DNA of 32,000 nucleotides, from NCBI RefSeq assembly GCF_018398935.1, contig NZ_CP074694.1, positions 5,010,001 through 5,042,000 of the forward strand. Reading direction: 5' to 3'. Shown piece by piece: positions 13,413-30,820 of this stretch. The position numbers were made by a program, and so were the translations under genes. The stretch is from Telmatocola sphagniphila (GTDB lineage Bacteria; Planctomycetota; Planctomycetia; Gemmatales; Gemmataceae). Below the pieces are notes generated by a model. It was not told the DNA's origin, made no database searches, and saw only the letters and a program-made list of their open reading frames with translations. Numbering within the stretch: position 1 is the first letter of the stretch; the number at the start of each line of letters is the position of its first letter.

Positions 13413-13492
13413 GAAGCTGTCCGTCGAAATTCCAAATAACCACAGCCGGAGAGAGGCCAGCTCGTAATGATAAATCTTTAAAGGCGGCGGTT

Positions 13493-13520
13493 ATTCTAAG
13501 GGGTCAATCTAGAGAATCAA
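13493..13520 (-). promoter_or_regulatory. Candidate sigma70-type internal promoter for the sugar-transferase operon
   Basis: On the minus strand the sequence reads TTGATT (13520-13515), 16 nt, TAGAAT (13498-13493). It lies about 80 nt upstream of the ATG at 13412, inside a 296-nt AT-rich gap. This is a pattern match only. Confidence 0.35.
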
Positions 13521-13708
13521 GAAAACGATTTTACGGATTACGCAGACCAATTGGTTCAGAACGGGGTTTGAATTTTCGGTTCACAACCCAACCTGAGTCC
13601 ATTAAATAAGTTTTTTAACTTACAAAACAAAATCGGCGCACCTCAGAAACAAACAAACGCACGATAATACAATTGAATTGTTATTTCTGGTATTTTCGGT
13701 CTGCCCGC

Positions 13709-15949
13709 CTACTTCGCCATGCTGACATATTGCGAATTTCCGTAGCCGTACAACTCTTCCCGGGTGCCGTTGACGATGGCCCCGGCGATCAGCACATCCA
13801 ACTGAGCCAGGCGATGCTGGGCTGAATTCACTTTCTCGAGTTGGGTGTGATTCACGAACATGCTGAAAAGCACTGAATCGGCATGGCGAGCCATGAGCAA
13901 TGTATCCGCCACCGGCAGAATGGGGCTGGAATCAATGAGGATGAAATCGAAATGATCTCGCAGCTCATTGATAATGTGCCCGAATCCGTCCATGGCCAGC
14001 TGTTGAATGGAAAGCCGTTCGGCCCGGCCGGCCGTCATAATGGTGAGGTTGGCAATCGGCGTGTCGATCAGAGCTTGTTCCGCATTCACCTCGCCGCGAA
14101 GGGCTTCGCAGACGCCCGGCGACACCGGCATCTTGAAGAACTCATGCAGCGTGGGCTTACGAAGATCGCCATCGACGAGCAGCGTCTTGCGTCCGGAACG
14201 GGCCAGACTTTGGGCGAGCGCCCGGGCTACCGTAGACTTCCCTTCCGAAGCGACCGCACTGGTGATCAGGACCACCTTCAATTGGCTTGCTCGAGCAGTG
14301 TGAAGCAGAATCGTCCGGGCACTATCGATCGATTCGGTGAGCAGGGTATGCCAGCGCAGATCGCTGGCGGTTGGTTTCTCGGGCAACCCATGTTCCAGCA
14401 ACGCCTTGGAAGGGCATTTGGGTAAGGAACCGATTAGTCTCATTCCCACATCGAGGACGATTTCATCGATGCCGCCAAGCCGACGGGCTCGGAATTCCAG
14501 AAAAGCGAACAACAGCAGAGTGGCCCCGAATCCGAAGATCGCTCCCAGAGCCGAAATTTTTACCCGGCGTTCCCGGTCGTTGGGAATTTCCACGGTGGCC
14601 GGTTCGAGTTCCTCGATGCCCTGTTTGGCGGTGATTTCCAGCTTGGCCTGAGCTTCTTTACGCTTCAACGAAGCATATTCCTCCTGGGCTTGTTCCAGAT
14701 CGATATCCTTACCGTCCAGAAGTACCCGGCCACTGACCTTGGATTTCAGGGAATCCCGGCGAAGCTTCAAGGTGGCGATATCGTTGGCGAGAACTTTCAA
14801 TTCCGCTTGTTTGCTGGCTATCGAATCCCGGGCTTCCTTATCGAATTTATCCTTGGCTTGCTCCTCCAGATTCTTTCGCGCCTGCTTGCGGCACTCGTCG
14901 AGTTTCTTCTGATTCTCGGTCAGATCGCTTTCGATTTTGACAATCGTCGGGGAGCCGGGCTCGTATCGCTTCCGGTAGTCTTCCAGCATCTTGTTCAGTT
15001 CGCGATTTTTCCGCGTCAGTTCAATGAACTCGTCATCGGTGGTAAGAAAATTGTTGATGGTCGCCTCGGGAATCCGGAAGCGATCTTCCGAATTCAAACG
15101 GTTTTGCAATAATTCCAGGCTCGATTTGGTTTTGCTCTCTTCGCGTTCCAGATTATTCAGTTCGCTCATCAGGCTCAGATACTCACTCTGAAACTGCATC
15201 TGTTGCGCTTCGACGGTGGCCTTGGTTCCGGAATTGTCCTTCAGTTGATTTTCCAGAGCATCCCGAATCTTCTTGAGCCGCTTTTCGGATTCGGTAACTT
15301 GGGCGTGAATTTCCTGATAGCGCTCCTGGCGGGCGGCACTTGCTCGGCCGGTGACCTCCGACATGTAGGAATTTTCTACCGCGGTGACGAGCTTTCCAAT
15401 CTCCCTATCCCGATCCCCTTCAAGCCGGATGCGGATGATTTCCGGACCGGATGGGAAATCCACTACTATTTCACGCTTCAGAAGCTTGATGGCGTTGTCG
15501 ATCGACCCTCGTTCCTGGATCGTTTCCAGCTCGGCGATCCCCGGCATTTCCAGCGCTTTCTTGAGGACCAGCCGGCTCAGAATTAACTCTTTGTGGGTTC
15601 TTTGGTCGATCTGCGATTCCGGGGCACGGATGGTTTCAGACTGGTCGCTGGGAATCAGCCGGAGTTTGGTGTACGCGCTCGGCCTGGTCGGAGGCAGGAA
15701 CACCCAGACAACCGCGGCCAGCAGGGCGCCCACAATCAGGCCGTAGAAGCTGGCCTTTTTCCAATTGCTTCGCAGCGAACGCAGCAGGGTTACTGCATTC
15801 AGCGGGCGAGGTGGCACGACGTGCATCGCGGGCTTGGCAATCGATTCCGGCAAGTCTCGCCAACCTTTTTCAACTCGGGCAGGAGCCGCCGTTTCCGGGG
15901 ATTTCGGCAGGGGATCAGTCATCTCAACCTCAGGTCGCAAATTTTGCAT
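13709..15949 (-). CDS. Polysaccharide co-polymerase / tyrosine autokinase (Wzc/EpsG-like, PCP-2a type)
   Basis: TM1 is FYGLIVGALLAAVVWVFL. A long coiled-coil periplasmic region follows, then TM2 (ALGAIFGFGATLLLFAFLEF). The kinase domain has Walker A ITSAVASEGKST, Walker A' LLVDGDLRKP and Walker B FILIDSSPILPVADT. The tail is Tyr-containing (EELYGYGNSQYVSMAK). The first ATG is at 15949. An in-frame GTG at 16006 is the alternative start used by the track. Confidence 0.88.
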   Translation of the reverse strand: MQNLRPEVEMTDPLPKSPETAAPARVEKGWRDLPESIAKPAMHVVPPRPLNAVTLLRSLRSNWKKASFYGLIVGALLAAVVWVFLPPTRPSAYTKLRLIPSDQSETIRAPESQIDQRTHKELILSRLVLKKALEMPGIAELETIQERGSIDNAIKLLKREIVVDFPSGPEIIRIRLEGDRDREIGKLVTAVENSYMSEVTGRASAARQERYQEIHAQVTESEKRLKKIRDALENQLKDNSGTKATVEAQQMQFQSEYLSLMSELNNLEREESKTKSSLELLQNRLNSEDRFRIPEATINNFLTTDDEFIELTRKNRELNKMLEDYRKRYEPGSPTIVKIESDLTENQKKLDECRKQARKNLEEQAKDKFDKEARDSIASKQAELKVLANDIATLKLRRDSLKSKVSGRVLLDGKDIDLEQAQEEYASLKRKEAQAKLEITAKQGIEELEPATVEIPNDRERRVKISALGAIFGFGATLLLFAFLEFRARRLGGIDEIVLDVGMRLIGSLPKCPSKALLEHGLPEKPTASDLRWHTLLTESIDSARTILLHTARASQLKVVLITSAVASEGKSTVARALAQSLARSGRKTLLVDGDLRKPTLHEFFKMPVSPGVCEALRGEVNAEQALIDTPIANLTIMTAGRAERLSIQQLAMDGFGHIINELRDHFDFILIDSSPILPVADTLLMARHADSVLFSMFVNHTQLEKVNSAQHRLAQLDVLIAGAIVNGTREELYGYGNSQYVSMAK

Positions 15950-16062
15950 GGGGTCTTCATTTTTTACGAATTTTGCGCGGACTCCGTCCCTCTGGGTGCA
16001 AAACACCTACATCGAGGGATGGACTATTCGTTCTGACTTTCGCGCCGCAGCACTCGAGTCCG

Positions 16063-16617
16063 TTAACGGGCGATGTCGATCATCCATTCGTCGATTTCGA
16101 TGGATACGCCTTGTTGCAGCATGTCCACTTCGACGAAAAATCGTCCTTTAGTTCCCTGTCTCAGCCACTTGCCGCGCAAGCCCTCCAGGGGGCCCGCGAC
16201 GATCTCCACCAGCTGTCCAGGCTGGAGTCGATTTTCCGGGCGCAGACTCTCGCCGTTCTGCAGGATTCGATAAACCTGGGTGAGGTCGGACCAGAGTCGG
16301 TTTTGATCGACGACTTTGAGACAGGAAGCGATTTGGTTGGTTTCCAGGGCAATCTGTCGGGCGTAAACATCGCCGTACAGAAATACATAGCCGGGGAAGA
16401 GCGGTGCGTAGGAGCAGCTTTTGCCCTGTCGGCTTGGGAGCGGTCGGGCATCCCAGGGTAAAAAAAAGCTCACATTACGGGAGAGCAGTTTGCGCGCAAT
16501 CGATTTTTCTACCCGGGAGCGGGTATGCAGAACCCACCATTCGGCGGTGGGCAGTTCAGCGGGCTCCGAGAGCAGAGCATCCGGATAAATAAACGGTTCC
16601 CGTTGCAGAACCGGCAT
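16063..16617 (-). CDS. NusG-family specialised paralogue (RfaH/UpxY/LoaP-like transcription antitermination factor)
   Basis: NGN-like N-terminus: WWVLHTRSRVEKSIARKLLSRNVSFFLPW. KOW-like C-terminus: GQLVEIVAGPLEGLRGKWLRQ. The ATG at 16617 is preceded by AGAGGA with a 6-nt spacer. The track start at 16656 is a TTG. It is the first gene of the polysaccharide locus. Confidence 0.75.
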   Translation of the reverse strand: MPVLQREPFIYPDALLSEPAELPTAEWWVLHTRSRVEKSIARKLLSRNVSFFLPWDARPLPSRQGKSCSYAPLFPGYVFLYGDVYARQIALETNQIASCLKVVDQNRLWSDLTQVYRILQNGESLRPENRLQPGQLVEIVAGPLEGLRGKWLRQGTKGRFFVEVDMLQQGVSIEIDEWMIDIAR

Positions 16618-17434
16618 CGCGAGTCCTCTAGCGGCGCAAATTTCATGCCAGGCCAACCACTTCGGGTGGTTTTGGCTGACTGAATCTTAGAACAAGACGC
16701 CTGTTTTTGTCGGAGAATAATGATTCGGCCGGTTAATACACATTTACGCTCTAAACCGTGGAGGCGGATGATCAGGGCGCACATCGACTTGCGCGCTCTA
16801 TCACCCCTGCTGTCCGTGCCGAATCCTTCGATATGGAGTGCGGATTTCCCGAGGTGTCAACTTACTGTTTAACCTCAAGGAAGCGGTAGTTATTTTAAAT
16901 GGGCTCCCGGGGGTTACAACAGTAAATCCGCGCATGGGGAACAAAACCGATTCCCCCGAAAGACCGATTGTAGCGGTTACGCGAAATGGGCACAATTCTT
17001 CAAACGGCACGCGCACCGTTTGGTCGAACTCTGATTTTTTTTAATCCCAAATGATCGAGTTGCTGGGCATAACCGATTAGAGGCACAAGGGATCTGCTAG
17101 CGCGCGGATACTGGCTTTGGATCTATGAGAATTTCTCACAGATTTGAAACCCTAAGTGTCTATGCAGCGCAGAGATAGGAATTTGTCGGCACAATCCGTT
17201 TTTCGGAAACGATCCACATCCCTGGCTCGTCATTACTTAGGTAAACGGATTGACACTAACCCTAGAATCTTTTCACATGTTACTAGGTGGGGAAATGCTG
17301 AGCATTAAAAACTGTCGTGGATTACCCGAAGTGTTTATTCGGTAATTGGATGTGTCTGTCGTTAGAATTAGTCACAAAAATTTTTGCCCCGTTCGAAATC
17401 ATAGGTTTTTGGTCGGCCAACCGGAGTAAGTATC

Positions 17435-20400
17435 GTGTCGAAATTCTCTAGTCGTCGTTCTTGGTTTTCTGCCAAGCTGCCCCTTTCGCTGCTGGGTTTC
17501 GGTTCTGAAAAATCCCCGCGCAAGCACCATAAGACCAAATTGGGGCTGGAATCACTCGAAGATCGAACGGTCCCGACGATCTCGCTGGTCAACGCTCCGA
17601 ACTGGATCGAACAGGGAGGGTTGATCACCAATGCCTCCTCCAACACAACTAGTAGTACTCCCGGGCTCAATAACCAGGCAGTTGGCACCATCAACACGGT
17701 GGCCACCCCTTACGGCAATGCCAACATCATCTATGCCGGTGGTTCCAACGGCGGTGTCTGGCGGACGCTCAACGGCGGTCTGAGCTGGTCGCCACTCACC
17801 GACCAGATGCCCTCCAATTCGATCAGCAAGATCGTTATTAATCCCTTCAATACGAGCCAGGTTCTGGTCGGTCTGGGCGCCACCTCCTCCGGAGCGGCCA
17901 ATGGCTACCCCACTATCAGTGGCGATCTGATCGGCCTGTATTACTCGACCAACGCTGATGCCGCCGACCCGACCCAGGTGAAATGGACGATTATTTCCGG
18001 AGCCACAGCGACCAATCCCAATGCTAACCTCTTCGTCGGCCAGACGATTACTGGCTTGGCCATTCGCAACAATTACATGCTGGTGTCTGATTCCCAAGGC
18101 CTCTATCGTTCGATCGATGGCGGCAAGACCTGGGCCTTGATCAGTGGCACGGGTGGTCTCCCCGCCATGGGCATCTTCGACCTGGCCGAAGTTCCTCCTC
18201 CCCGCGTTCCCCCGCTGGTTTTAACCGAACCGACTAAGCCGGATGACTTCTACGTTGTCGGTCAAGGTGGCCTGTTCCGCTCCACGAACGGGGGCGTGAC
18301 CTGGACCAATATGAACGTAACATTCGCGGAGAACGACGGCACTGCCGTGACTCTGACGAATGCGATCAATGCAAAGATTTCCGTCCACTTCGACGTGTAC
18401 GACTACGTCGTCTATGTGGGTGTGGTAACTCCGAACCAATTGAATCCAGCAAAAACTCCTGCCGCTTTACCGTTGGTTCAAGCGATTCCTGAGGGTACCC
18501 AGGAAGTCTGCCTCAGTTGGATCAACCTGTCGCTGGCCAATCCGGTCTGGACCGCGATGGATCAACCCCGGCAACTGACTCAGGCCCAAGGCCCAGTACC
18601 TTGGATGATCGGTTTTAACCTTGAAGGAATTGATCCTACGACGCTGGGCATGACCAGTGCCACGATCAATAATCAGTCAGGCATTCTAGTTAGTTGGGCG
18701 GAAGCCTTCAGCAATTATCACACTGGGGATCGCGTTCGAGTCACCAACATTCCCATTCAGTCCGTCAATCCGGACGTCGACGGTGCTAACGGCGACTGGC
18801 AGATTATCAAAGTCAATGCTTCCCAGATTTTACTCATAGGCGCAACCTTCAACGGGACCTACGGTGGCAACCAGCAGTTCCCTAATCCGCAGGCCCTAAT
18901 TCAGCTTTGGGAAGATCCGACCTATGGCAGCACCGGAGCTACGAATTTCTCCATAGTTGCGGACAACTATAACTCGAACGTCGTTTACATCGGGGGCGAT
19001 TTCACCGATACGAACTGGGCTAATACCACGGCAGGAGCCGCAGGAAATACCGGTGTCGTTCTCGAAGGCAATCGACTCGCCTTCCATTCGGCCGGTCGTT
19101 ATAAGTACAGCTATTTACCTTATCAGGGAAGCCCACCTCCTTTTCAGGAAGCCCAATGGCAGGCTCTGACGAACGGTTTCACGCCGGCCTCGGAACCCGC
19201 AAATGGTATTCTGACGACGCCTTCGTTGGGTACGGCCCCGTTCAGCGGTAGCCGACAACTCATTATGGATGCGAATTACGGCTTGTTGGATGCTACCGAG
19301 GGTGGCCTCTACCAGCTGAAGAAATTCTCCTCCACGAATTTCCCCCTTTCGGCAGACTTCCCAACCGGCTCCTGGACTTCTTTGAATCAGGGTCTTAACG
19401 TCGGCGAAGTGAATGCCGTCGGCCTGGATGTGGCCAATAACATCATCGTGGCTGGTACGGCGACTCAGGGCTCTATCGTTCAAAGTGCCTCCGGAAGCCA
19501 GATCTGGAATACGATTGACAACAACCAAAACACGTCGACTCAACGAGGGAGCGGGTATTTCGTATACGTCGACAATACGGGTACGACTCAAACGATTCGT
19601 TACACCCTCGGTAACGAAGCTTTCAGTGCCCTGGGTGCCGGTGTAGATCAGCAAATTTTCAACACCAGTAACACGCAGGTTGGCACCACCCAGCAAAATA
19701 TCTTCTCACAAACGAATTACAATCCGTTCGTAATCAACGCCGTCGATCCGACACGAGCCTTATTGGGTGGTACGACGACGAATTCAGTTACAGGACCTTA
19801 CGGCTTAGTGGAAATTACTGGTGTGAGTTCGGCTAACCCGGTACTAACCGCGGTTACGCCTCCCAACATGTTTTCGCAACCCAGCCAGGTTCTGAGCATC
19901 GCCTACGGCGGCAAGGATCCCGATGGCACGCTCGAACCAAACGTCGCCTACATCGGCACCAGTTCGGGGCAGATCTACGTCCGGGCGCCGGGGCAGAATG
20001 AATTCTTCCCGAAATTCCCGCCTTCGTATCCCGTGAAGCTGGTCACCGGGATCGTCATGGATCCTAATAACTGGAAGATTGCCTATGCCGTCCGGGGCTC
20101 GGACGTCATCATGACTGTCGATGGCGGCAATACCTGGACGAATATTACCGACAACCTGATCAACTCGGTTTCCAACCCGATCGGCAACGGCATTCAGATC
20201 ACCGATCAATTGAGTTGCATCGCTTTGTGGACCGATCCCAGTAACCCCACCAACCAGGAGCTGGTCGTCGGTGGCCGGGGCGGTTACTTCCGTTTGAATC
20301 TGGATCAGAATCTGAACACCGGCACCAGCTGGAGCCGCTACGGCGCCAACCTGCCCTACGTGATCGGTCAGTCTCTCCAGTTCTATGGCAACACATTGGT

Positions 20401-23400
20401 AGCCGGCACCTACGGTCGAGGCGTTTGGGAAATTCCCGATGTTTCCTCGACCATTCAGCAGGTTGTTACGGTGGTCGTCACCGATTCGGTCGGCGGCCGA
20501 AATATCTTAATTTCTCAGGATCCCACGCTTCCGAATAACGTCGATATCACGGTTTACGACAGCAGCGGCAACGTCGTCGAATCGGCCAGTTACGACCGCT
20601 CCACGTTCCAGAATTTGATCGTCAACGCCAAGGGAGCGGGCGATACTGTCACGGTTCGCAACTCGACCGGCTCGAATCCCAACACCGTGGACTTCGTCAA
20701 CTTCCAGCTGACCATCAACGGCGACAACGATGCGGGAGCCAAACTGATCGTCGATGACTCCGGGAATACTGTCGGTAAGTCGTTAACGGTGACCTCGAAC
20801 AACATCAGCGTCTACCCGGGGGATAAATACTTCGGCAACGGCGGTTACATTACCTACACCGGCTACGCAAATGGTACCGGCACCATCAACCTGGGTAATG
20901 GCGGAGACACCACAACGGTTAGCGGCTACACTTTCCACACATTGATCATGAACGATGGCAATGGCGGTAACAAACTGACCATTACCGGCACCAGCCCCAA
21001 CGCAACTGATTCACTGACTTACACCAGCGGAACGGGCAATGATACTGTGCTCATCACTGCCGATACTTCGATCCTGAACATCAATACCGGCGGCGGCAAC
21101 GATAACATTTCAGTCACGAGTGAAGCGGCAACCGGCACGATTAACATCTCGGCCGGCGATGGCAACGACACCGTCTACTTCGGAAATATTCTGGCCAACA
21201 TCATGGGGGTCGTGAATGCCGACGGCGGCACGGGTAACAATACCATCGTGTTCGACGATTCGGGCTCGGCTTCCTCGACCGGAACGATCAATAATCTGAT
21301 GATCACCGGCTTTGGCATGCCGAAAGGCATCTCTTACACCAACTTCACAAATATCACTGTGGATGGCAGTGCGACGGGCAACGATAACATTACCGTCAAT
21401 AACACGGTGGCCAACGGCACGACCACGATCAACACCGGCTCGGGCAACGACAACATTACCGTCAACAATGCTTCCGGCATCACCAACATCTTCATGGGGA
21501 CCGGTAACGATAACGCCACGGTCAACAACGCCACAGGCATTCTGTCGATCTACGGCGAAAGCCAGGGGCAGACTTCGGGCTCAGCCTCGAACTTCGTCAA
21601 CTTTGCCCTGCGGGCCAGTGCGGCGGGCAGCACCGTGAACCTGATCAGCCCGTTCAGCAGCACGAACTTCAACGTGTCGTCGAACGCGACGATTCAGCAG
21701 GTGAACAACGGCGTTCTCAGCAAGATTCAGGGGAACACGAACATCACCGGCGGTACCGGCACCGATGTTCTGAATCTCAACGATTACAATTCTCCTTCAA
21801 GCACCGGCAACTTCTCGGCGACGCAGATGTCCGGTTTCGGCATGGGCAGCGGACTGCTGACCTACGGCGGTGTCGGCCTGGTTAACTTGAATCTGGCCAA
21901 TGGTCCCGCTAGCGACAACGTCACGGTCAGCGGTACGATTCAAGGCACCACCAACATCAATACCAACGGCGGTAACGACACGCTGACCATCCAGAACGCC
22001 TCGGGCACGGTGAACGTGGCCGCGGGCGGCGGCAACGACAATATCACCATCAATAACTTCGACGGTCTGACCGCGACTGCGGGTGTCTTCGGCGTGATGA
22101 CGGTGACTGGTGGTGGTGGCAACAACATCTTCTCCCTCCAGAAGAACTCCGCGAAGGTTGTCATCAACGGTGTCAGCGGCAACAACATCTTCAACATTTC
22201 CGGCTCGGCGACCCCTGCGGGCGTGGGTACGAGTGGTACGCTCGCAGGCATTCAAGGCGTCGTCCAACTCGATGGCGGTACCGGAACGAATATTCTGAAC
22301 GCCAGCGACTACGGAGCCATCGCCAGCACGGGTACTATCAATACTTCCCTGATCACCGGTTTCGGCATGGCCGCCACCGGCATCAGTTACACTCGGTTCG
22401 CCACCGCCAACATCAACTCCTCCAACGGTCCGGGCAGCGATTTGATCCAGATCGCCAGCACGATCAGCGGTACGACGAACGTGTACACCAATGCGGGTAC
22501 CGATACCGTCAACGTGGTGAAATTCAACGGTCCGCTGAACGTTTACGGCGGCGTCGGCAATCACACCTTTAACGTGGCTTCGGATGCCAGCACCAACCTT
22601 GGAACCGTTGCCAATGTTCAGTATCCACTGACCATCAACGGCGGCGGCGGTCAGAATACCCTGAATATCAGCAACTATGGGGCGGTCCCCAACGCACTCC
22701 CCGGTAATCTGACGGGTACCTTGAGCGCCAGCAGTCTGACCGGTTTCGGCATGGCCGCCACCGGCATCGTTTACAAGGGCATCACCACTCTGAATCTGCA
22801 GCTGAACAACACCGGCAACGTCAGTCTGAATGTTACCGGCACAGGTGCCTCCACTGCCACCAACGTTTATGGCAACGGCGGCACCGATGCCTACACGATT
22901 CAGGGGAGCAGCCTCACCGGGATCAACACGTTCATCGGTGGGGCGGGCAATGCGAATAGCTTCATCGTCAATGCCGGAACGGGCATCACCGGCAGCGCCG
23001 TCCAACTGATCGGCGGACCTTCCGGCAACATTGGCAATAACACGGTTGTGTTCAACGGCCGAACTTCGAGCGATGCCTTCAAGTTGAGCCTGGGTGTCAA
23101 TAACAACCAGTTGAGCGGGTTGGGCGCCCCCGTCAACTTCAACAATATTGAAGATGTCTCCACCAACGGCAACGGTGGCTCCGACACCTTCACTCTCACC
23201 AATAGTCTGGGTATCGGTTTTGGAACTCTGGCTAACCCCAGTACGGGTGTCGTCTACCGTCCGACCGGAGCCAGCTCGGGCGACTTCCGCTTCAATATCG
23301 ATCCGACGACGGGCCTCTCGGCCAACCTCGCTCAGACACCGACAATCCACTTCTCGAGCATTACCGGAAACGTCACTTACAGTGGCAATCCGACCAATGG

Positions 23401-24874
23401 AGCGAAGGATGTACTGGTCGTTCTAGGAACGAGTACGACCGGTCAGAGCTCAGGGTTGCCGTATAACGAAACTACCAGCGCCAACGGCAATGACACCTTC
23501 GTCATCACCGATTCCAGCCTGACATTGAATAACGTCGGAACGACCGCGAACCCCGGTCTGGGCGCGATGCATGGCATCACCTACACCTCGACGAACTTGG
23601 CCGAACTCTACGTCTTCACCGGTAATGAAACGGGGAACAAGGGCGATACCGTAACGGTAACTCCTTCTAAGAATTTGACCATGCTTATCGACGGTGGGCT
23701 GCCCTCCGGTGTCACACCGGGAGATACGCTGAACATCGTTACCAATGGCACGCACACGATTAACACCGTATCCGACCCGACGCTGGGTCCACCGCATTTC
23801 GTCCTGACACAGGGCGACGGCTCCTCGGTGGGTTATCTCAATTTTGAAACCGTCAATTCCGGTAGCACCGGTGGCGGTGGTGGCGGCGGCAGCGGTGGTG
23901 GCGGCGGCAGCGGTGGAACCACCTCGTCGATTATCGCAGTAGGCAGCGCCGGTGGTGTGACGGGTACGGTTCAGGTTTTCAATTCCAATGGAACCCTGCT
24001 CCGACAGTTCGTCCCTTATGCCGGATACATGGGCGCGGTACACGTGGCCGTAGGCGATGTCAATGGCGATGGCATTCCCGATATCATCACCTCGCCGGGC
24101 GCTGGTGTCGATCCGCACGTCGAAGTATTCGATGGTGTGACCGGAAACCTGATCTACAGCTTCGATGCCTTCGCACCGACCTTCGTGAGCGGTATCACCG
24201 TGGCCGTGGGTGATCTGAACGGCGATGGTTACGGCGACATTATCGTCGGAGCCGGGGCCGGCGGACCTCCGCACGTCATCGTCTTCAGCGGTAAGGACCT
24301 CACCGTTCTTCGCAGCTTCTACGCTTATGCCCAGGGATTCCTGGGTGGCGTGACCGTGGCGGCCGGAGATCTGATGGGCGATGGTAACATGGATATCATC
24401 ACCGGCACTGGTCCGGGCAGCCCGCCGCACGTCGAAGCCTTCCGCTACAGCGACATGGCTTTGGTCCGCAGCTTCTATGCTTACGATCCCGCCTTCCTGG
24501 GTGGCGTGTCTGTGGCGGCCGGCGATCTCACGGGGAATGGCTATGCCGACCTCGTCGTGGGAGCAGGTGTGGGTGCTTCTTCTCACATCGAAGCATTTGA
24601 CGGCCAGACGAACAACCTGGTCGCCAGCTTCCTGGTCAACAACAACGGCGTGTCTTCAGGCGTCGGTTCAATTCCTCGTCAGGCCGCGGCAGTGGTCGCC
24701 GTCGGGGATCTGGGAAGTACCGGCACCAATGCGATTCTGGTGGGCAGCGGCCCGGGTACTTACTCGACAATTCGCAGCTTCCGAATCACCCCGGCCTTCC
24801 AACAGGGCCAGAGCCTCCAAGCCTTCACACCGACGTTCGGCTTCGGGGTGTGGCTCGGTGCCAGCCAGGATTAA
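17435..24874 (+). CDS. Giant (2,479 aa) putative secreted/cell-surface protein: LEDR-type leader, Asp-box/BNR propeller-like region, repeated TGFGM/GxGND modules, Gly-Ser linker, FG-GAP-like propeller
   Basis: GGAG at 17423-17426 lies 8 nt before the GTG at 17435, and the ORF is uninterrupted for 7,440 nt. Asp-box-like motifs are VWRTLNGGLSWSPL, LYRSIDGGKTWALI, LFRSTNGGVTWTNM and IMTVDGGNTWTNIT. (T/S)GFGM occurs at aa 1291, 1466, 1641 and 1769. There are five VA(V/A)GD(L/V)xGxG repeats at aa 2204-2430. The gene ends in a double stop TAATAA followed by a terminator. Confidence 0.92.
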   Translation: MSKFSSRRSWFSAKLPLSLLGFGSEKSPRKHHKTKLGLESLEDRTVPTISLVNAPNWIEQGGLITNASSNTTSSTPGLNNQAVGTINTVATPYGNANIIYAGGSNGGVWRTLNGGLSWSPLTDQMPSNSISKIVINPFNTSQVLVGLGATSSGAANGYPTISGDLIGLYYSTNADAADPTQVKWTIISGATATNPNANLFVGQTITGLAIRNNYMLVSDSQGLYRSIDGGKTWALISGTGGLPAMGIFDLAEVPPPRVPPLVLTEPTKPDDFYVVGQGGLFRSTNGGVTWTNMNVTFAENDGTAVTLTNAINAKISVHFDVYDYVVYVGVVTPNQLNPAKTPAALPLVQAIPEGTQEVCLSWINLSLANPVWTAMDQPRQLTQAQGPVPWMIGFNLEGIDPTTLGMTSATINNQSGILVSWAEAFSNYHTGDRVRVTNIPIQSVNPDVDGANGDWQIIKVNASQILLIGATFNGTYGGNQQFPNPQALIQLWEDPTYGSTGATNFSIVADNYNSNVVYIGGDFTDTNWANTTAGAAGNTGVVLEGNRLAFHSAGRYKYSYLPYQGSPPPFQEAQWQALTNGFTPASEPANGILTTPSLGTAPFSGSRQLIMDANYGLLDATEGGLYQLKKFSSTNFPLSADFPTGSWTSLNQGLNVGEVNAVGLDVANNIIVAGTATQGSIVQSASGSQIWNTIDNNQNTSTQRGSGYFVYVDNTGTTQTIRYTLGNEAFSALGAGVDQQIFNTSNTQVGTTQQNIFSQTNYNPFVINAVDPTRALLGGTTTNSVTGPYGLVEITGVSSANPVLTAVTPPNMFSQPSQVLSIAYGGKDPDGTLEPNVAYIGTSSGQIYVRAPGQNEFFPKFPPSYPVKLVTGIVMDPNNWKIAYAVRGSDVIMTVDGGNTWTNITDNLINSVSNPIGNGIQITDQLSCIALWTDPSNPTNQELVVGGRGGYFRLNLDQNLNTGTSWSRYGANLPYVIGQSLQFYGNTLVAGTYGRGVWEIPDVSSTIQQVVTVVVTDSVGGRNILISQDPTLPNNVDITVYDSSGNVVESASYDRSTFQNLIVNAKGAGDTVTVRNSTGSNPNTVDFVNFQLTINGDNDAGAKLIVDDSGNTVGKSLTVTSNNISVYPGDKYFGNGGYITYTGYANGTGTINLGNGGDTTTVSGYTFHTLIMNDGNGGNKLTITGTSPNATDSLTYTSGTGNDTVLITADTSILNINTGGGNDNISVTSEAATGTINISAGDGNDTVYFGNILANIMGVVNADGGTGNNTIVFDDSGSASSTGTINNLMITGFGMPKGISYTNFTNITVDGSATGNDNITVNNTVANGTTTINTGSGNDNITVNNASGITNIFMGTGNDNATVNNATGILSIYGESQGQTSGSASNFVNFALRASAAGSTVNLISPFSSTNFNVSSNATIQQVNNGVLSKIQGNTNITGGTGTDVLNLNDYNSPSSTGNFSATQMSGFGMGSGLLTYGGVGLVNLNLANGPASDNVTVSGTIQGTTNINTNGGNDTLTIQNASGTVNVAAGGGNDNITINNFDGLTATAGVFGVMTVTGGGGNNIFSLQKNSAKVVINGVSGNNIFNISGSATPAGVGTSGTLAGIQGVVQLDGGTGTNILNASDYGAIASTGTINTSLITGFGMAATGISYTRFATANINSSNGPGSDLIQIASTISGTTNVYTNAGTDTVNVVKFNGPLNVYGGVGNHTFNVASDASTNLGTVANVQYPLTINGGGGQNTLNISNYGAVPNALPGNLTGTLSASSLTGFGMAATGIVYKGITTLNLQLNNTGNVSLNVTGTGASTATNVYGNGGTDAYTIQGSSLTGINTFIGGAGNANSFIVNAGTGITGSAVQLIGGPSGNIGNNTVVFNGRTSSDAFKLSLGVNNNQLSGLGAPVNFNNIEDVSTNGNGGSDTFTLTNSLGIGFGTLANPSTGVVYRPTGASSGDFRFNIDPTTGLSANLAQTPTIHFSSITGNVTYSGNPTNGAKDVLVVLGTSTTGQSSGLPYNETTSANGNDTFVITDSSLTLNNVGTTANPGLGAMHGITYTSTNLAELYVFTGNETGNKGDTVTVTPSKNLTMLIDGGLPSGVTPGDTLNIVTNGTHTINTVSDPTLGPPHFVLTQGDGSSVGYLNFETVNSGSTGGGGGGGSGGGGGSGGTTSSIIAVGSAGGVTGTVQVFNSNGTLLRQFVPYAGYMGAVHVAVGDVNGDGIPDIITSPGAGVDPHVEVFDGVTGNLIYSFDAFAPTFVSGITVAVGDLNGDGYGDIIVGAGAGGPPHVIVFSGKDLTVLRSFYAYAQGFLGGVTVAAGDLMGDGNMDIITGTGPGSPPHVEAFRYSDMALVRSFYAYDPAFLGGVSVAAGDLTGNGYADLVVGAGVGASSHIEAFDGQTNNLVASFLVNNNGVSSGVGSIPRQAAAVVAVGDLGSTGTNAILVGSGPGTYSTIRSFRITPAFQQGQSLQAFTPTFGFGVWLGASQD
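23876..23916 (+). repeat. Perfect tandem 18-bp repeat (2.3 copies) encoding the (GGGGGS)2 linker
   Basis: ggtggtggcggcggcagc occurs at 23876-23893 and again at 23894-23911. A partial third copy, ggtgg, follows. The repeat lies inside the giant ORF (aa 2146-2161). Confidence 0.95.
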
Positions 24875-24981: not shown

Positions 24982-25079
24982 ACCGATGTTAAATTTTTTG
25001 CTCGATGGTCTGCGAGCTTTTTTCGCGACTATTAATTTAACACCGTTACATGATTTTACAACGTTACGGACTCTCCCCC

Positions 25080-25740
25080 ATGACCTCCACGAACACCAGC
25101 CAAGAGAGAAGAGAGAAACACAAGATCGAACTGCGCTCCAAAATCCTGGATGCTGCCCGGGAATTGATCGTAGACCAGGGGGTGGATCAATTTTCGATGC
25201 GAAAGCTGGCCGCAAAGATCGGTTACACGGCCACGGCGATCTATTTCCATTTCGCGGATAAAGAGACGTTGATTCAGGAACTGGTCGATCTCGATTTCAT
25301 CAAGTTCCGCGAGCAGTTCGACGGCCTCGAACAGAAAGCCGACCCGATCGAGCGGATTCGCCTGATGGGTTTAGCCTTCGTTTCCTTCTTCTCGCGCAAC
25401 CCCAGTCACTTTCGATTTTTGTTCATGACGCCGAATCTCAAAATGGTCCCTTCGGCGAAGGTCGTCACCCAAGGCAATCCGGCGGAAGACAACTATTGCC
25501 TTTTGAAATCGACGGTGGAAGAGGCGCTCGCTCAGAATCGGTTTCGCGAAGAGTTGCGGGACAGCGACGAAATCTGCCAGATCCTGATGGCGGTCGTGCA
25601 TGGGGTGGTTTCGAATCACATTTCACATTTGCCGGGAAGCCCATCCGTGGATCGAATTTCGCCCGGTAGAACAAACGGCTCAGAGTGCCATCACCGCGGT
25701 AATTCGCGGCTTGCTGCGACAACCGGAGGAGATGAAATGA
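25080..25740 (+). pseudogene. TetR/AcrR-family repressor with an apparent +1 frameshift near codon 185
   Basis: The N-terminal HTH is RSKILDAARELIVDQGVDQFSMRKLAAKIGYTATAIYFHF, in the frame of 25080. After about 25630 that frame gives odd text (PGSPSVDRISPGRTNGSECHHRGNSRLAATTGGDE) and runs without a stop into the next gene. The +1 frame gives HPWIEFRPVEQTAQSAITAVIRGLLRQPEEMK-stop. Its TGA (25738-25740) overlaps the ATG of the next gene (25737) as ATGA. The ATG at 25050 is an alternative start. Confidence 0.65.
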
Positions 25741-26816
25741 ATCGATTGACCGCGATCGGCTTGGGACTGTTCATTTTTGCCGTCCCGGGCTGCAAAAAGG
25801 AAATCGAAGAAGCGCGCGAGATCATCCGACCGGTAAAAGTCACCCAGGTTCGCTACGGCCAGACCACCGACCGGGCCAGCTATACCGGCGTGGTGAAAGC
25901 CCGCTATGAAGCCGAACTGGCCTTCCGGGCTAGCGGCAAAATTTTGAGCCGGAAAGTGGAGCTGGGCCAGCGGGTCAAGGCCGGGCAGGTCATCGCCGAG
26001 TTGGACCCTCAAGATTACGTGCTCTCCATGAAGGCCTCCGAAGCTTCCCTGGCAATGGCCGAGGCCGATGCCAAGCAGGCCATCGCCGATGAAGTCCGCA
26101 ACCGCGATCTGGTTCGAGGCAAGGCCATTTCGCCCGCTGATTACGATCGCTACCGAGCGGTCGCCGATGCCCAGATCAAGCGGGTGGAACAGGCGAAAAG
26201 TCAGCTCGATATTTCCCGCAACAAATTGATTTATACCACGCTGAAAGCGGACCACGATGGCGTCATCACCAATCTGATGTTCGAAGTGGGTAAAGTCGTT
26301 GCCGAGGGCACACCAATCGTCGTGGTGTCCCGGACCGATGAACTCGAAGCCGTGGTGGCCATCCCGGAAAATCGGGTGACGGTGGCTCAAACCGCCAAAG
26401 CCAGCGTGGAACTCTGGTCCGATAAGGATCGAAAATTTGCGGCCCGCCTGCGGGAGCTGTCGCCAAATGCGGACCCGATCACCCGCACCTATACCGCCCG
26501 ATTCCATATCGAAAAACCGACCGAGGAAGTTCGCCTCGGCATGACGGCCACCGTGCATCTCGACTCTCTGGATGTCGGCCGCCAGCTGGTCACTTTGCCG
26601 CTGTCGGCCGTCTACGATTCCGGCAAAGGCCCCCGCGTCTGGGTCGTCGATCCGAAAACCGGCAAACTCACTTCCCGTGAAATTCGCGTGAAAGAATACC
26701 ACCAGGACACCATTCTGATCGCTTCCGGGCTGCAGGTGGGAGATCACGTCGTGACCGGGGGCACGCAAAAATTGGATGAAGGCCTGACGGTGCGCGTCGT
26801 GCTCGACAAGCCGTAA
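25737..26816 (+). CDS. RND efflux periplasmic adaptor (membrane fusion protein, HlyD/AcrA family), lipoprotein-type signal
   Basis: MNRLTAIGLGLFIFAVPGCKK has a signal peptide and lipobox-like VPGC. Biotinyl/lipoyl-like and beta-barrel segments follow (GKILSRKVELGQRVKAGQVIAELD; IYTTLKADHDGVITN; VWVVDPKTGKLTSREIRV). In the ORF track it is fused in-frame to the TetR ORF (25050-26816). Confidence 0.88.
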   Translation: MNRLTAIGLGLFIFAVPGCKKEIEEAREIIRPVKVTQVRYGQTTDRASYTGVVKARYEAELAFRASGKILSRKVELGQRVKAGQVIAELDPQDYVLSMKASEASLAMAEADAKQAIADEVRNRDLVRGKAISPADYDRYRAVADAQIKRVEQAKSQLDISRNKLIYTTLKADHDGVITNLMFEVGKVVAEGTPIVVVSRTDELEAVVAIPENRVTVAQTAKASVELWSDKDRKFAARLRELSPNADPITRTYTARFHIEKPTEEVRLGMTATVHLDSLDVGRQLVTLPLSAVYDSGKGPRVWVVDPKTGKLTSREIRVKEYHQDTILIASGLQVGDHVVTGGTQKLDEGLTVRVVLDKP

Positions 26817-26864: not shown

Positions 26865-29800
26865 ATGAAGGCTATGAATCTTTCCGAGTGGGCGGTGAAG
26901 CATCGGTCGCTGGTGCTTTACTTCATTCTCAGCAGTGCCGTCGCCGGATTGATGGCCTACCAGAGCATGGGTCGGGCGGAAGACCCGAGCTTCACGCTCA
27001 AGGTGATGGTGGTGAACGCCTACTGGCCCGGCGCGGATGCGGAGGAAATGCAACGGCAGGTGGCCGATAAGATTGAGAAAAAGCTTCAGGAAGTTCCTTA
27101 CTTCGACAAAGTGATGACCTATTGCCGGCCGGGCGAGGCCTTCATGCAAGTGATTTTGAAAGATACGACTCCGCCGAAGAAAGTTGATCACTGCTGGTAT
27201 CTGATCCGCAAGAAAATCGGAGACATTCGCGGCAATCTGCCTCAGGGTGTCGTCGGCCCGTTTTTCAACGACGAATACAGCGATGTCTATGGGAATGTGT
27301 ACGCTTTGACCGCCGACGCAGGCTTCTCGCAGGCGGAACTGAAAAAGTACGCGGAAGAGATCCGCCAGCGACTTTTGCATGTCGAGCAGGTCGACAAAGT
27401 GACCATCGGCGGCGATCAGCAGGAGAAAGTCTTTGTGGAAGTTTCGCATCGGAAGCTCGCCACGCTGGGTATCTCTCCGAATCAGATATTCGATGCCTTG
27501 CAGAAACAGAATACCGTCGCCTCGGCCGGCAGTGTGGAGACCCAGAGCGAGCGCGTGCAAATCCGCGTGGAGGGTTCCTTCGGTGCGGTCGATCGTATAC
27601 GCGAAATGCCCATCGAAGCTGGAGGGAAGCTGCTGCGGCTCGGCGACATCGCGGAAATTCGTCGTGGCTATGAAGATCCGCCGAGTTACATCATCCGTCA
27701 CAACGGTCGACAGTCGATTCAACTCCAGGTATCGATGGCGGAAAACGGCAACATTCTCCGGCTGGGCGATAGTCTCCGCGAAGAAGTTCAAAACTGCCTG
27801 AACGATCTGCCGCACGGCGTCCATCTCGACCTGGTGAGCGATCAATCGAAGGTCGTTCACGAATCGATTGGCGAATTCACCAAATCTTTTGCCGAAGCCC
27901 TGGCGATTGTTCTCGTCGTCAGCTTCCTGACCTTAGGGCTGCGCACGGGTATCGTAGTGGCTCTCTCGGTGCCGCTGGTGCTGGCGATCTCCTTGACGAT
28001 CATGAAAGCCACCGGCTGGAATCTGGATCGCATCACACTCGGCTCTTTGATCGTCGCACTCGGCTTACTGGTCGATGATGCCATCATCGCCGTGGAAATG
28101 ATGCTGGTGAAGATGGAACAGGGCTGGGATCGCATGAAAGCGGCCTCCTTTGCCTGGACTTCAACGGCTTTTCCCATGCTGACCGGGACTTTGGTGACCG
28201 CCGCCGGTTTTCTGCCGGTCGGTTTTGCCCCTTCGAGCGCTGGGGAATACGCTGGGGGCTTTTTCTGGATTGTCGGTTTAGCTTTACTGGTCTCCTGGGT
28301 AGTGGCCGTGGTGTTCACGCCTTACCTGGGTTACATGCTGCTTCCCGATTTTTCGAAACGCAAGTCGCATAACGCCCACCACGACCTTTACAGCGGCCGG
28401 TTCTACCGTCTGCTGCGCTGGTTAATCGACAAGTGCGTGCGCTTCCGTTTTCTGGTGATTCTGGGCACCGGTGCTTTGTTTGTTGCGGGTGTGGCCGGGT
28501 TCACTCAGGTGGAGCAGCAATTTTTCCCCACTTCGGAACGGACTGAGGTCACCGTCGATCTTCGCCTGAAGGAAGGCTCTTCATTTGAAGCCACTTTGAA
28601 TCTCGTGAAAATTCTGGAGGCGGAACTGCAGCCGGAGCTGGGTCAGAAAATTCTTTACTTCGATACCTATACGGGGGCCGGTTCGCCGCGCTTTCTGCTG
28701 ACGCTTAATCCGGACTTACCCAATCCCAATTTCGCGAAAGTGGTAATTCAAACCCCCGATATCGCCGCTCGGGAGCTCATCCTAACCCGATTGCGGAAAA
28801 TCTTCAACGAAGACGAACGGTTCAGTATCGCCTGGTGCCGCGCTCAACGATTGGAACTGGGGCCACCGGTCGGTTTCCCGGTTCAATTCCGCGTCGTCGG
28901 CGTCGATGCCAAAAAGGTGCGCGAGATCGCCTACGAAGTGCGGGAGCTGATGCGCGAAAACCCGAATGTGCGGGATCCGAATCTGGAATGGAACGAAATG
29001 ACCAAGCGGGTGAATCTGAAAATCGATCAGGATCGACTGCGGGCCATGGGTTTATCGCCGTTTGATGTGAGTAGCGCGCTTCAAACGATGCTTTCGGGTT
29101 ACGCGGTCACTCAATATCGGGAGGGTATCGAACTCATCGATGTCGTCGTGCGGGCCGTTCCTACGGAGCGTTTGAATCTCGACGGCTTGAAAGATATTAA
29201 TCTGACCAATCGACAGGGCTCACCCGTTCCTTTGTCGCAAATCGCCACGCTGGAGTACAGCCACGAGGAGCCTATTCTCTGGCGGCGCAATCGCGATATG
29301 AACATAACGGTGCGCGGCGATGTGCTCGATGGTTTGCAGGCGCCGGATGTGACCATGCAGGTCTGGCCGGAAATTCAAAAACGCATCATCCCCAAATTGC
29401 CGCCCGGCTACCGGATCGAAATCGGGGGTTCGGTCGAGGAATCGGCCAAGGCCAATGATGCTTTGATTTCCATTTTTCCCGCGATGCTGCTGGCCATGCT
29501 GACGCTGCTAATGATTCAGCTGCAAAGCTTCCAACGGGTGATGCTGGTCTTCATGACTGCCCCGCTGGGTATCATCGGTGTGGCGATTTTTCTCCTGGCG
29601 TTCCATCAACCATTCGGGTTCGTGGCTACCTTGGGAGTGATCGCCCTGGCCGGAATGATCATGCGAAATTCGATTATTCTCGTCGATCAGATCGATCAGG
29701 ATATCGAGCACGGCATCGAACCCTGGGAAGCGATTGTCGGCTCGACCGTTCGCCGCGCCCGGCCAGTCGTACTGACTGCGCTGGCGGCTATCCTGTCGAT

Positions 29801-30038
29801 GATCCCGTTATCGCGGAACGCATTCTGGGGACCGATGGCGATTGCCATCATGGGGGGGTTATTGATCGCCACTGTGCTGACACTGGTATTTCTGCCAGCG
29901 CTCTACGCCGCCTGGTTCCGGGTGAAGCGAGTGAAGAAAAACTCGCCGTCACAAAATAAACATCCGGAAACTGTCGACTTGGCAGTCGAAACCGTTCGCG
30001 AGGTTGTCTTTTCGAAAGCACCGCTTGCCAGTACTTGA
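26865..30038 (+). CDS. RND (HAE1/AcrB-family) inner-membrane efflux transporter
   Basis: 1,057 aa. The N-terminus is MNLSEWAVKHRSLVLYFIL. Typical RND TM4/TM10 regions are LGSLIVALGLLVDDAIIAVE and LGVIALAGMIMRNSIILVDQID. There are two large periplasmic loops. Confidence 0.93.
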   Translation: MKAMNLSEWAVKHRSLVLYFILSSAVAGLMAYQSMGRAEDPSFTLKVMVVNAYWPGADAEEMQRQVADKIEKKLQEVPYFDKVMTYCRPGEAFMQVILKDTTPPKKVDHCWYLIRKKIGDIRGNLPQGVVGPFFNDEYSDVYGNVYALTADAGFSQAELKKYAEEIRQRLLHVEQVDKVTIGGDQQEKVFVEVSHRKLATLGISPNQIFDALQKQNTVASAGSVETQSERVQIRVEGSFGAVDRIREMPIEAGGKLLRLGDIAEIRRGYEDPPSYIIRHNGRQSIQLQVSMAENGNILRLGDSLREEVQNCLNDLPHGVHLDLVSDQSKVVHESIGEFTKSFAEALAIVLVVSFLTLGLRTGIVVALSVPLVLAISLTIMKATGWNLDRITLGSLIVALGLLVDDAIIAVEMMLVKMEQGWDRMKAASFAWTSTAFPMLTGTLVTAAGFLPVGFAPSSAGEYAGGFFWIVGLALLVSWVVAVVFTPYLGYMLLPDFSKRKSHNAHHDLYSGRFYRLLRWLIDKCVRFRFLVILGTGALFVAGVAGFTQVEQQFFPTSERTEVTVDLRLKEGSSFEATLNLVKILEAELQPELGQKILYFDTYTGAGSPRFLLTLNPDLPNPNFAKVVIQTPDIAARELILTRLRKIFNEDERFSIAWCRAQRLELGPPVGFPVQFRVVGVDAKKVREIAYEVRELMRENPNVRDPNLEWNEMTKRVNLKIDQDRLRAMGLSPFDVSSALQTMLSGYAVTQYREGIELIDVVVRAVPTERLNLDGLKDINLTNRQGSPVPLSQIATLEYSHEEPILWRRNRDMNITVRGDVLDGLQAPDVTMQVWPEIQKRIIPKLPPGYRIEIGGSVEESAKANDALISIFPAMLLAMLTLLMIQLQSFQRVMLVFMTAPLGIIGVAIFLLAFHQPFGFVATLGVIALAGMIMRNSIILVDQIDQDIEHGIEPWEAIVGSTVRRARPVVLTALAAILSMIPLSRNAFWGPMAIAIMGGLLIATVLTLVFLPALYAAWFRVKRVKKNSPSQNKHPETVDLAVETVREVVFSKAPLAST

Positions 30039-30141
30039 TCCGTCGAGGAATGGAATCATTTCATTTGGAAAGCGAGTTTCGTATCCTTGGCTGAGTAGGC
30101 TCCCCTGAGATTTCGAAACTCGACTTCCTATAATTCTCTCC

Positions 30142-30705: not shown

Positions 30706-30713
30706 TTTCCATT

Positions 30714-30787: not shown

Positions 30788-30820
30788 ATTTCGGAATGTT
30801 GACATAAGGTATTTTCGCCC

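Follow-up and report, generated by a model that had tools for sequence, protein, structure and literature searches.

Tandem RTX-like cassettes with a predicted beta-solenoid fold make up the central array of a giant Telmatocola sphagniphila protein and belong to an unnamed family

Telmatocola sphagniphila (Gemmataceae, Planctomycetota) encodes a protein of 2479 residues whose central part is a tandem array of cassettes that, judged by sequence searches, belong to a family as yet unnamed in Pfam, NCBIfam, or the PDB. The gene lies in a window of 32,000 nucleotides (nt) from contig NZ_CP074694.1 (assembly GCF_018398935.1, positions 5,010,001 to 5,042,000; all coordinates below refer to this window). 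A single unbroken open reading frame (ORF) at 17435-24874 on the plus strand, also predicted by a gene caller on an independent public Logan assembly, includes the repeat-bearing stretch 20705-23209 that an initial annotation, made from the letters alone, had singled out. We propose, with a probability of about 0.62, that the array is the central, probably Ca2+-stabilized stalk of a giant protein, either secreted or displayed at the cell surface, and that it consists of tandem copies of an unnamed beta-solenoid cassette. Each cassette would be a single-edged, RTX-like beta-solenoid that is punctuated by a conserved non-RTX coil and lengthened in steps of about 20 residues.

Much of what the initial annotation described was borne out by direct tests of the protein sequence. 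The (T/S)GFGM motifs sit exactly at residues 1291, 1466, 1641, and 1769, with spacings of 175, 175, and 128, and the two rungs quoted as examples, GSGNDNITVNNASGITNIFM and GTGNDNATVNNATGILSIYG, were located at residues 1335 to 1374. At least four copies had been claimed, and each masked unit indeed retrieves the other three by composition-corrected blastp with E values of 1e-6 to 1e-22, at 33 to 45% identity over 91 to 127 residues. Because the composition of the region is strongly biased, Smith-Waterman comparisons against residue shuffles were added, and the four clear units scored 8.6 to 19.3 standard deviations above 200 such shuffles. The region is poor in charged and aromatic residues, as had been noted: D, E, K, and R together make up 6.2% and F, Y, and W 5.9%, while N, G, T, S, I, and V account for 69.3% (Asp, 4.2%; Glu, 0.4%; Asn, 14.9%). 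The description of one GxGND turn per rung, not in tandem, is likewise accurate. GxGx[DN]xU motifs number 15 in residues 1085 to 2111, compared with 2.4 +/- 1.5 in shuffles; no two of them show 9-residue spacing, and in the rung runs at residues 1154-1265 and 1335-1375 one follows the next after 20 to 24 residues. At the DNA level, Tandem Repeats Finder finds no repeat of unit length, which argues that the copies are old and diverged. Degenerate copies had been suggested on each side of the clear ones; this stands for the N-terminal side (residues 1085-1164), whereas the C-terminal side gives only weak matches (E 1e-3 and 5e-3; z <= 4.1). On these grounds the array appears to span about residues 1085 to 2111, and its start is placed near nt 20687 because the family profile described below matches a degenerate cassette at residues 1085-1164 together with rungs at residues 1167-1248.

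The repeat unit itself had to be redefined. A length of 128 to 175 residues had been given for it, and this is replaced by a core of about 95 to 101 residues with 0 to 4 extra rungs of about 20 residues each. In the first 19 homologues, unit spacing clusters at about 95-101, 115-122, 136-143, and 160-175 residues, and across 990 neighboring pairs from 145 further proteins, it peaks at 94-101, 116-120, and 138-141 residues. In a two-unit alignment (A2), the additional residues, in blocks of about 20 to 21, are all inserted at a single site toward the C terminus of the unit. Rung number sets cassette length, at about 95, 117, 140, or 175 residues. Measured between the starts of hidden Markov model (HMM) matches, the Telmatocola units have periods of 175, 175, and 122 residues (175, 175, and 128 when measured between TGFGM motifs), and in sequence terms these read as core plus four rungs, core plus four, and core plus one.

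A profile of 111 positions, termed A3, was made from 43 units including the four from Telmatocola. It matches these four end to end, at residues 1252-1361, 1427-1538, 1602-1713, and 1724-1841 over positions 1-109/111, with E values of 7e-27 to 1e-30. Support independent of A3 comes from the 19 external homologues, which were found with the Telmatocola repeat region alone; an HMM of only the four Telmatocola units detects units in all 19, with 5 to 13 matched stretches each. The homologues spell the core as L(N/T)VDD(S/T)G....TGTLT...LTGLGM..GITY.G...L...LGSG.DTF.V.. In the four Telmatocola units, residues G13, G14, G16, T31, G32, G41, F42, G43, M44, and Y50 (first-unit numbering) are invariant and agree with the family logo. 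Profile positions 22-23 are DD in one of the four units and ND, SD, and SN in the others.

All of the cassettes are read from the plus strand. Cassette 0 (residues 1085-1251; 20687..21187) has a degenerate core without TGFGM (LIVDDSGNTVGKSLTVTSNNIS...GYITYTG), followed by four GxGND rungs; A3 matches it at residues 1085-1164 (E 5.6e-7), 1167-1225 (E 8.3e-11), and 1214-1248 (E 1.4e-7), and its shuffle-based Smith-Waterman z scores against cassettes 1 and 2 are 4.5-5.7. Cassette 1 (residues 1252-1426; 21188..21712), 175 residues long and also supported by blastp, matches A3 over positions 1-110 at E 1.3e-30. Its TGFGM lies at residue 1291 (nt 21305-21319), its extra rungs include GSGNDNITVNNASGITNIFM and GTGNDNATVNNATGILSIYG, and its tail is degenerate. 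Cassette 2 (residues 1427-1601; 21713..22237), also of 175 residues, has its SGFGM at residue 1466 (nt 21830-21844) and an A3 E value of 2.7e-29, and it comprises a core and about four extra rungs, with 15 strands in the two-unit structure model. Cassette 3 (residues 1602-1723; 22238..22603) is 122 residues long, with TGFGM at residue 1641 (nt 22355-22369), A3 E 6e-30, and a core plus one extra rung. Cassette 4 (residues 1724-1865; 22604..23029), of 142 residues, has TGFGM at residue 1769 (nt 22739-22753), A3 E 7.4e-27, an insertion of six residues, NALPGN, ahead of the TGT strand, and degenerate rungs; it scores z 8.6-15.0 against cassettes 1 to 3. Beyond it lie two possible degenerate cassettes. 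A weak cassette 5 (residues 1866-2013; 23030..23473; NQLSGLGAPVNFNNIEDVSTNGNGGSDTFTLTN) matches A3 at E 1.3e-3 for residues 1866-1923 and reaches z 4.1 against cassette 1 only. A weak terminal cassette 6 (residues 2014-2111; 23474..23767; GNDTFVITDSS...GLGAMHGITYTSTNLAELYV...GDTVTV...GDTLNIV) matches A3 at E 4.7e-3, with pairwise scores no higher than those of shuffles.

A family logo compiled from 1858 units of 145 proteins reveals which residues are kept. Four GxGxD turns occupy profile positions 13-17, 62-66, 84-88, and 104-108, with Asp at 62, 59, 79, and 69%, respectively, and Asn as the main alternative (12 to 29%). An x-U-x-U strand comes after each turn, as in the RTX spelling. The remaining landmarks are a DD pair (positions 22-23, with D in 84% at position 23), TG(L)G(M) (positions 40-44), I-x-Y (positions 49-51, with Y or F in 91% at position 51), and S/G-T (positions 72-73, with Thr at position 73). 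Thr or Asn predominates at the positions that alternate with hydrophobic strand residues (positions 10, 20, 58, 69, 80, 82, 91, 100, 102, and 111), and from this pattern these side chains would point outward.

Structure prediction agrees with the parallel beta-helix that had been suggested. AlphaFold2 (AF2) was run with the unit alignments built in this analysis, and strand layout was read from DSSP strings. The two-unit model (residues 1427-1723) has a predicted local distance difference test score (pLDDT) of 90.5 and a predicted template modeling score (pTM) of 0.88; the one-unit model (residues 1602-1715) has a pLDDT of 95.1, a pTM of 0.87, and 11 strands. Both models are all-beta, with strands of 4 to 6 residues about every 10 residues, and the beta-solenoid assignment follows from the resulting pattern of about two short strands per roughly 20 residues in these confident models. 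The strands of the one-unit model begin at residues 9, 19, 31, 38, 49, 56, 69, 79, 90, 100, and 110. This layout suggests regular coils of about 20 to 22 residues, each formed by a strand, a GxGxD turn, a second strand, and a short turn. It also suggests one irregular coil of about 25 residues with three short strands (TGTI / LITG / ISYT) and the TGFGM loop, and this three-strand coil would hold every GxGxD turn at the same strand-to-strand position. The weak matches returned by Foldseek are almost all beta-solenoids or beta-rolls, which is consistent with the same fold, although no match to the PDB reached E <= 1e-3 for either model. The best, the RTX region of CyaA, has an E value of 5e-3 and a probability of 0.90 and is not significant; 3P4G, the Ca2+-dependent beta-helical antifreeze domain of Marinomonas, is listed at E 0.018-0.065 with probabilities of 0.90-0.92. 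Other weak matches include serralysin/PrtC rolls, the AlgE6 R-module, CsgA, and bactofilin.

That the module could not be assigned to a named family, as the initial annotation held, is supported by searches of Pfam, NCBIfam, and PDB sequences, none of which matched the unit. On the 2479-residue protein, Pfam-A finds C-terminal FG-GAP and a sub-threshold BNR match and nothing in the cassettes, and NCBIfam gives a single weak match at residues 205-243. A Telmatocola unit scanned singly against Pfam (member 1 of A3) matched 0 families, and four family members with 17 to 20 matched stretches apiece match nothing in either Pfam or NCBIfam. PF00353 (HemolysinCabind) is sub-threshold in 11 of the 43 family units, with a best E value of 0.004. 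A search of PDB sequences with the cassette profile returned 0 matches, and one with the rung-rich segment returned chance-level matches at E >= 0.18 (a platelet-binding glycoprotein and ribosomal uL2). No description of the cassette turned up in literature searches, whether by motif string or among giant planctomycete and RTX-like solenoids. Existing annotations add little: 16 of the 19 homologues of the repeat region have no precomputed Pfam domain and the few names are generic, and the source-given names seen for family members are all uninformative, mostly "hypothetical protein."

The family is large and widely distributed. When 1.84 billion cluster representatives were searched exhaustively with A3 by hmmsearch, 9413 proteins reached E <= 1e-3, of which 5197 reached E <= 1e-10 and 1719 reached E <= 1e-30, and many members are giants of 2,000 to 8,000 residues with 10 to 74 matched stretches. 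Cassette-specific peptide patterns were also used to scan genomes, and this yielded 76 loci, each with a tblastn match covering almost the full cassette, in Verrucomicrobiota, Planctomycetota, Actinomycetota, Acidobacteriota, Spirochaetota, Bacteroidota, Pseudomonadota, Desulfobacterota, and Cyanobacteria. The idea of a domain specific to Planctomycetota or to the Planctomycetes-Verrucomicrobia-Chlamydiae (PVC) group is therefore unsupported, since the family has 9413 cluster representatives and the genome scan places it in at least nine phyla; on sequence evidence it is PVC-rich but pan-bacterial.

Among characterized systems, the rung architecture has a close and named counterpart in region IV of MpAFP (also MpIBP; PDB 3P4G), an adhesin of Marinomonas primoryensis. 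This region consists of thirteen 19-residue repeats that form a Ca2+-bound right-handed beta-helix within a 1.5-MDa adhesin, with one RTX-like nonapeptide per coil (PMC3492233). The cassettes resemble it in having one RTX-like turn (of the xGTGND type) per coil of about 19 to 22 residues on a single edge, in a predicted Thr/Asx-rich exterior, and in being part of a giant surface adhesin or a protein predicted to be of that kind. Moreover, its peptide IDAGTGNDEIYIK (PMC3492233) resembles Telmatocola INTGSGNDNITVN at residues 1332-1344, and GTGND, GSGND, and GGGND spellings all occur in the Telmatocola repeat region. The likeness is local, to the tandem one-turn coils of the rung runs: cassette coils have 20 to 22 residues rather than 19, and the cassette solenoid is broken every 95 to 175 residues by the non-RTX coil DD...TG(L/F)GM...ITY, which region IV lacks. 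The similarity to 3P4G and PF18815 (AFP_2) is not significant (Foldseek E 0.018-0.5, TM score 0.26-0.36); 3P4G is absent from the single-unit matches, and PF18815 matched 1 of the 43 units, at E 0.049.

RTX beta-rolls (PF00353; serralysin/PrtC, CyaA, and AlgE R-modules) share with the cassettes the GxGxDxUx turn spelling and, as far as the cassettes are predicted, a two-sheet parallel roll or solenoid with short strands and a place in extracellular giant proteins, and they lead the weak Foldseek lists. CyaA RTX blocks are modular folding units with non-repeat elements between them, and the cassettes are similar by analogy. In contrast, RTX rolls have tandem nonapeptides that give two Ca2+ turns per 18-residue coil, on both edges, whereas the cassettes have one turn per coil of about 20 residues and none at 9-residue spacing. 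The protein context differs too, as the Telmatocola protein ends in FG-GAP repeats and its neighbors encode a TetR-membrane-fusion protein and a resistance-nodulation-division (RND) pump, with no ATP-binding cassette (ABC) exporter. In the family member P0022, which has canonical RTX blocks, the spacer between them at residues ~1960-2270 (AANFTLTNTSLTGAGTDVLSNIQLARLTITSG...) aligns weakly with the non-RTX coil of the cassette (TGTLT..LTGxG...I.Y..L.L). Such a match hints at an older theme, the "TLT..LTG.G" element, that the cassettes may share with RTX inter-block linkers. Pectate-lyase and adhesin beta-helices (Pfam Beta_helix; tapirins; the Bacteroides structures 3LJY and 4OPW) are also elongated parallel beta-solenoids of secreted or surface proteins, but they have three strands per coil of 22 to 27 residues, compared with about two per 20 residues in the cassettes. 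They rank low in the Foldseek lists (probability, 0.01-0.08; pectate lyases, 0.00-0.02), and neither the Telmatocola protein nor the family units match Beta_helix and its relatives in Pfam.

Taken with the logo, these likenesses allow a model of the stalk. Each cassette would be a supra-repeat of about five coils of some 20 residues, with about two short strands per coil. Four of the coils would each carry one RTX-like turn (G-x-G-x-D/N, then x-U-x), on one edge only, and one irregular coil of about 25 residues would bear most of the conserved landmarks (DD, TG(T)L, TG(L/F)GM, and I-x-Y), with 0 to 4 single-turn rungs appended at the C-terminal end. The GxGxD turns may bind one Ca2+ per coil along one edge, as in MpAFP region IV, so that folding would depend on Ca2+ and take place outside the cell. 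Ca2+ stabilization is plausible because one RTX-like nonapeptide per roughly 20-residue coil is the architecture of region IV, which also has a similar peptide; the proposal draws on the conserved GxGxD turns and on analogy with that region and with RTX rolls. Within each folding unit, the non-RTX coil could serve to set the register or to nucleate folding. At an assumed 4.8 A per coil, the approximately 50 coils of residues 1085-2111 would make up a rigid rod some 24 nm long, which may keep the N-terminal BNR/Sortilin-like and C-terminal FG-GAP domains apart or off the cell. The gene adjoins an exopolysaccharide/O-antigen cluster, a surface context that we count in favor of a stalk. T. sphagniphila itself forms stalk-like structures and rosettes (PMC3327967).

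Several observations weigh against this proposal. The handedness, the number of sheets, and the geometry of turns and ion sites come from reading DSSP strings, and the top Foldseek matches, which are non-significant, have TM scores of only 0.27-0.38. PF00353 has no match on the 2479-residue protein at E <= 1, and when the cassette profile was compared with the canonical RTX block of P0022 by hhalign, the result (17.8% probability, E 0.0014) fell on the inter-block spacer, not on the nonapeptides; direct homology to RTX repeats is at best weak. Secretion and surface placement are predictions, and no ABC exporter or type I secretion system genes adjoin the giant gene among the neighboring genes examined. 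Finally, the habitat of T. sphagniphila is acidic peat with very low salt (PMC3327967), and, going beyond that report, we expect Ca2+ to be scarce there, probably. In the four Telmatocola cassettes, 10 of the 16 "D" positions of the turns are Asp, and the rest are Asn (three), Val, His, and Ala. The notion that an acid-bog host swaps turn Asp for Asn was considered and rejected, as 10 of 16 is not notable against the 59 to 79% Asp of the family.

The alternatives mostly concern how such a solenoid would be held together and what it would do. A Ca2+-independent spacer, in which tight glycine turns, Asn/Thr ladders, and a hydrophobic core allow metal-free folding, is unlikely but deserves to be taken seriously. 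It would account for the 6 of 16 turn positions in the Telmatocola cassettes that are not Asp, for the low content of D (4.2%) and E (0.4%) relative to N (14.9%), and for the lack of a PF00353 match, and it would suit an acidophilic, oligotrophic bog bacterium. Nevertheless, Asp is the majority residue at all four turns of the family logo, and the main alternative, Asn, is itself a possible ligand; the GxGxDxUx spelling is, moreover, the RTX ligand set. The confident folding of the cassettes by AF2 without ions has also been placed on the metal-free side, but it does not discriminate, because AF2 folds true RTX rolls ion-free as well. A bolder extension of the stalk proposal, which we regard as rather improbable, is that the cassette is a distinct pan-bacterial domain family whose non-RTX coil has a function of its own, which would make the cassette a new class of modular, length-tunable adhesive stalk and not an inert filler. 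Possibly, that coil nucleates the Ca2+-driven folding of one cassette after another during export, or sets its register; another possibility is a site for ligands or self-association, with flat Thr/Asn faces binding crystalline polysaccharide such as the cellulose fibers to which this organism attaches.

It is less probable still that the array is a binding surface and not only a spacer, whether through flat, outward-facing Thr/Asn rows that would contact a crystalline or repetitive ligand (cellulose microfibrils, another polysaccharide, or ice) or through a ligand site at the TG(L/F)GM loop. Thr and Asn do alternate with conserved hydrophobic strand positions in the logo, and MpAFP region IV, the closest solved analogue, binds ice via Thr/Asx rows (PMC3492233); T. 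sphagniphila cells stick to cellulose fibers (PMC3327967). Such T/N-rich surfaces are, however, generic for soluble beta-solenoids, and although tapirin cellulose adhesins appear among the weak Foldseek matches (E 1.3-3.9), they do so at chance level (probability, 0.06-0.08). The family also spans very many habitats and phyla, which favors a generic structural role. A conventional RTX protein, in which the array would be a degenerate HemolysinCabind stretch and type I secretion the means of export, is disfavored and very improbable. The sub-threshold PF00353 matches in 11 of the 43 units (best E, 0.004) and the true C-terminal RTX blocks of some members (e.g., P0022, PF00353 E 1e-30) point that way, but the Telmatocola protein itself has no PF00353 match at E <= 1, no nonapeptides at 9-residue spacing, and a C terminus formed by an FG-GAP domain instead of an RTX block with a secretion signal, and the genes beside it encode the TetR-membrane-fusion protein and RND pump rather than a type I ABC exporter. 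Nor is the array a low-complexity artifact of composition without a defined unit or fold. The bias is strong (69.3% N, G, T, S, I, and V), yet this explanation is refuted by unit-to-unit scores of 8.6 to 19.3 standard deviations above composition-preserving shuffles, by composition-corrected blastp E values down to 1e-22, by thousands of homologues that keep the same register and landmarks, and by pLDDT values of 90 to 95.

The proposed stalk is flanked by two regions that do not belong to the repeat. The N-terminal region (residues 1-1084; 17435..20686, plus strand) starts with an LESLEDR-type leader and continues into a BNR/Asp-box, Sortilin-Vps10-like part, with Asp-boxes at residues 226 (SIDGGKTW) and 283 (STNGGVTW). 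Pfam recognizes no domain above threshold in this region of the Telmatocola protein itself, and library matches are weak (BNR, sub-threshold in Pfam, and F510_1955). Among 892 homologues of the region, the majority carry PF15902, PF02012, or PF14870 (Sortilin-Vps10/BNR); the closest are 30 to 32% identical, and one of these is from a Pirellulales metagenome-assembled genome. The BNR/Sortilin-Vps10-like region is presumably a beta-propeller, and the N-terminal region is the probable "head" borne by the stalk. In 10 of the 120 best N-terminal homologues, a cassette array directly follows the BNR/Sortilin region, and two of these ten have FG-GAP too, so a head with a cassette stalk, with or without FG-GAP, is a recurrent architecture. 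At residues 36-48 (window positions ~17540-17580, plus strand), the leader reads KLGLESLEDRTVPT and is preceded by a basic stretch and a short hydrophobic stretch. It resembles an LE(P/D)R-type motif at the N termini of large secreted proteins of planctomycetes and the PVC group; it has no match among NCBIfam models, and the family member P0007 has LEALEPRVLLS for comparison.

At the other end of the array, a GGT/GGC microrepeat at 23870-23917 (plus strand) encodes a linker of 16 Gly and Ser residues, GGGGGGGSGGGGGSGG (residues 2146-2161), at the junction of the stalk with the C-terminal domain. By its sequence, this linker is plausibly a hinge and a possible site of length variation. The FG-GAP/VCBS-type repeats that follow (residues ~2170-2479; 23942..24871, plus strand) lie outside the cassette repeat and are identified by Pfam matches to FG-GAP (E 8.9e-17) and FG-GAP_3 (E 1.9e-8), with four GDxxG[DN]G loops at residues 2207, 2259, 2311, and 2363. 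Two antisense ORFs lie wholly inside the giant gene, at 21797-23350 (minus strand, 517 residues) and 23450-24586 (minus strand, 378 residues), and these are taken as shadow ORFs of the compositionally biased repeat region because the plus-strand ORF has thousands of homologues.

Upstream of the giant gene and divergent from it is a surface-polysaccharide (exopolysaccharide/O-antigen) cluster of about 15 kb, at 1952-16656 on the minus strand. It encodes a NusG paralogue (16063-16656), a Wzc-like AAA_31 protein, i.e., a Wzc-like kinase (13709-16006), a Bac_transf sugar transferase (12453-13412), a 509-residue protein with three VanZ matches (9867-11399), a Wzm/Wzt ABC-2 transporter (8922-9839 and 7662-8906), a Wzy_C protein (3110-4495), and a GT4 glycosyltransferase (1952-3094), as well as GT2 and further GT4 glycosyltransferases. 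The ORFs at 9867-11399 and 11210-12703 share 190 nt as listed, which makes a more downstream start probable for one of the two. On the other side, a plus-strand gene at 25050-26816 encodes a protein of 588 residues, identified by domain matches, that joins a TetR_N DNA-binding domain (residues 32-78, E 4.9e-14) to an HlyD/RND membrane-fusion protein (residues 287-500). The independent assembly also predicts it as one gene, of 578 residues, and it sits directly upstream of an RND (ACR_tran) pump at 26865-30038; a regulator joined to a periplasmic adaptor is an unusual topology. The pump is 100% identical to the T. sphagniphila protein, which assigns the window to this species. The final 2 kb of the window (30001-32000) has a G+C content of 0.469, compared with about 0.53-0.58 in the rest, and covers an ORF with an Aconitase_C domain (30142-30705) and an ORF of 276 residues with no Pfam match (30821-31651). 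An Rfam scan of the window returned no match.

The value of these findings is in annotation and structure; the cassette alone reveals no new biological process or mechanism. If our reading is correct, a large domain family, with at least 5197 clusters at E <= 1e-10, has been missed entirely by current annotation resources. With a curated model, a sizeable share of what is now unannotated in the giant surface proteins of Planctomycetota, Verrucomicrobiota, and other groups would receive a name. The cassette would also extend the theme of RTX proteins and MpAFP to a single-edged, "punctuated" solenoid with a length adjusted in steps of about 20 residues, which would be of interest for protein design and for the question of how beta-solenoids of great length keep their register as they fold.

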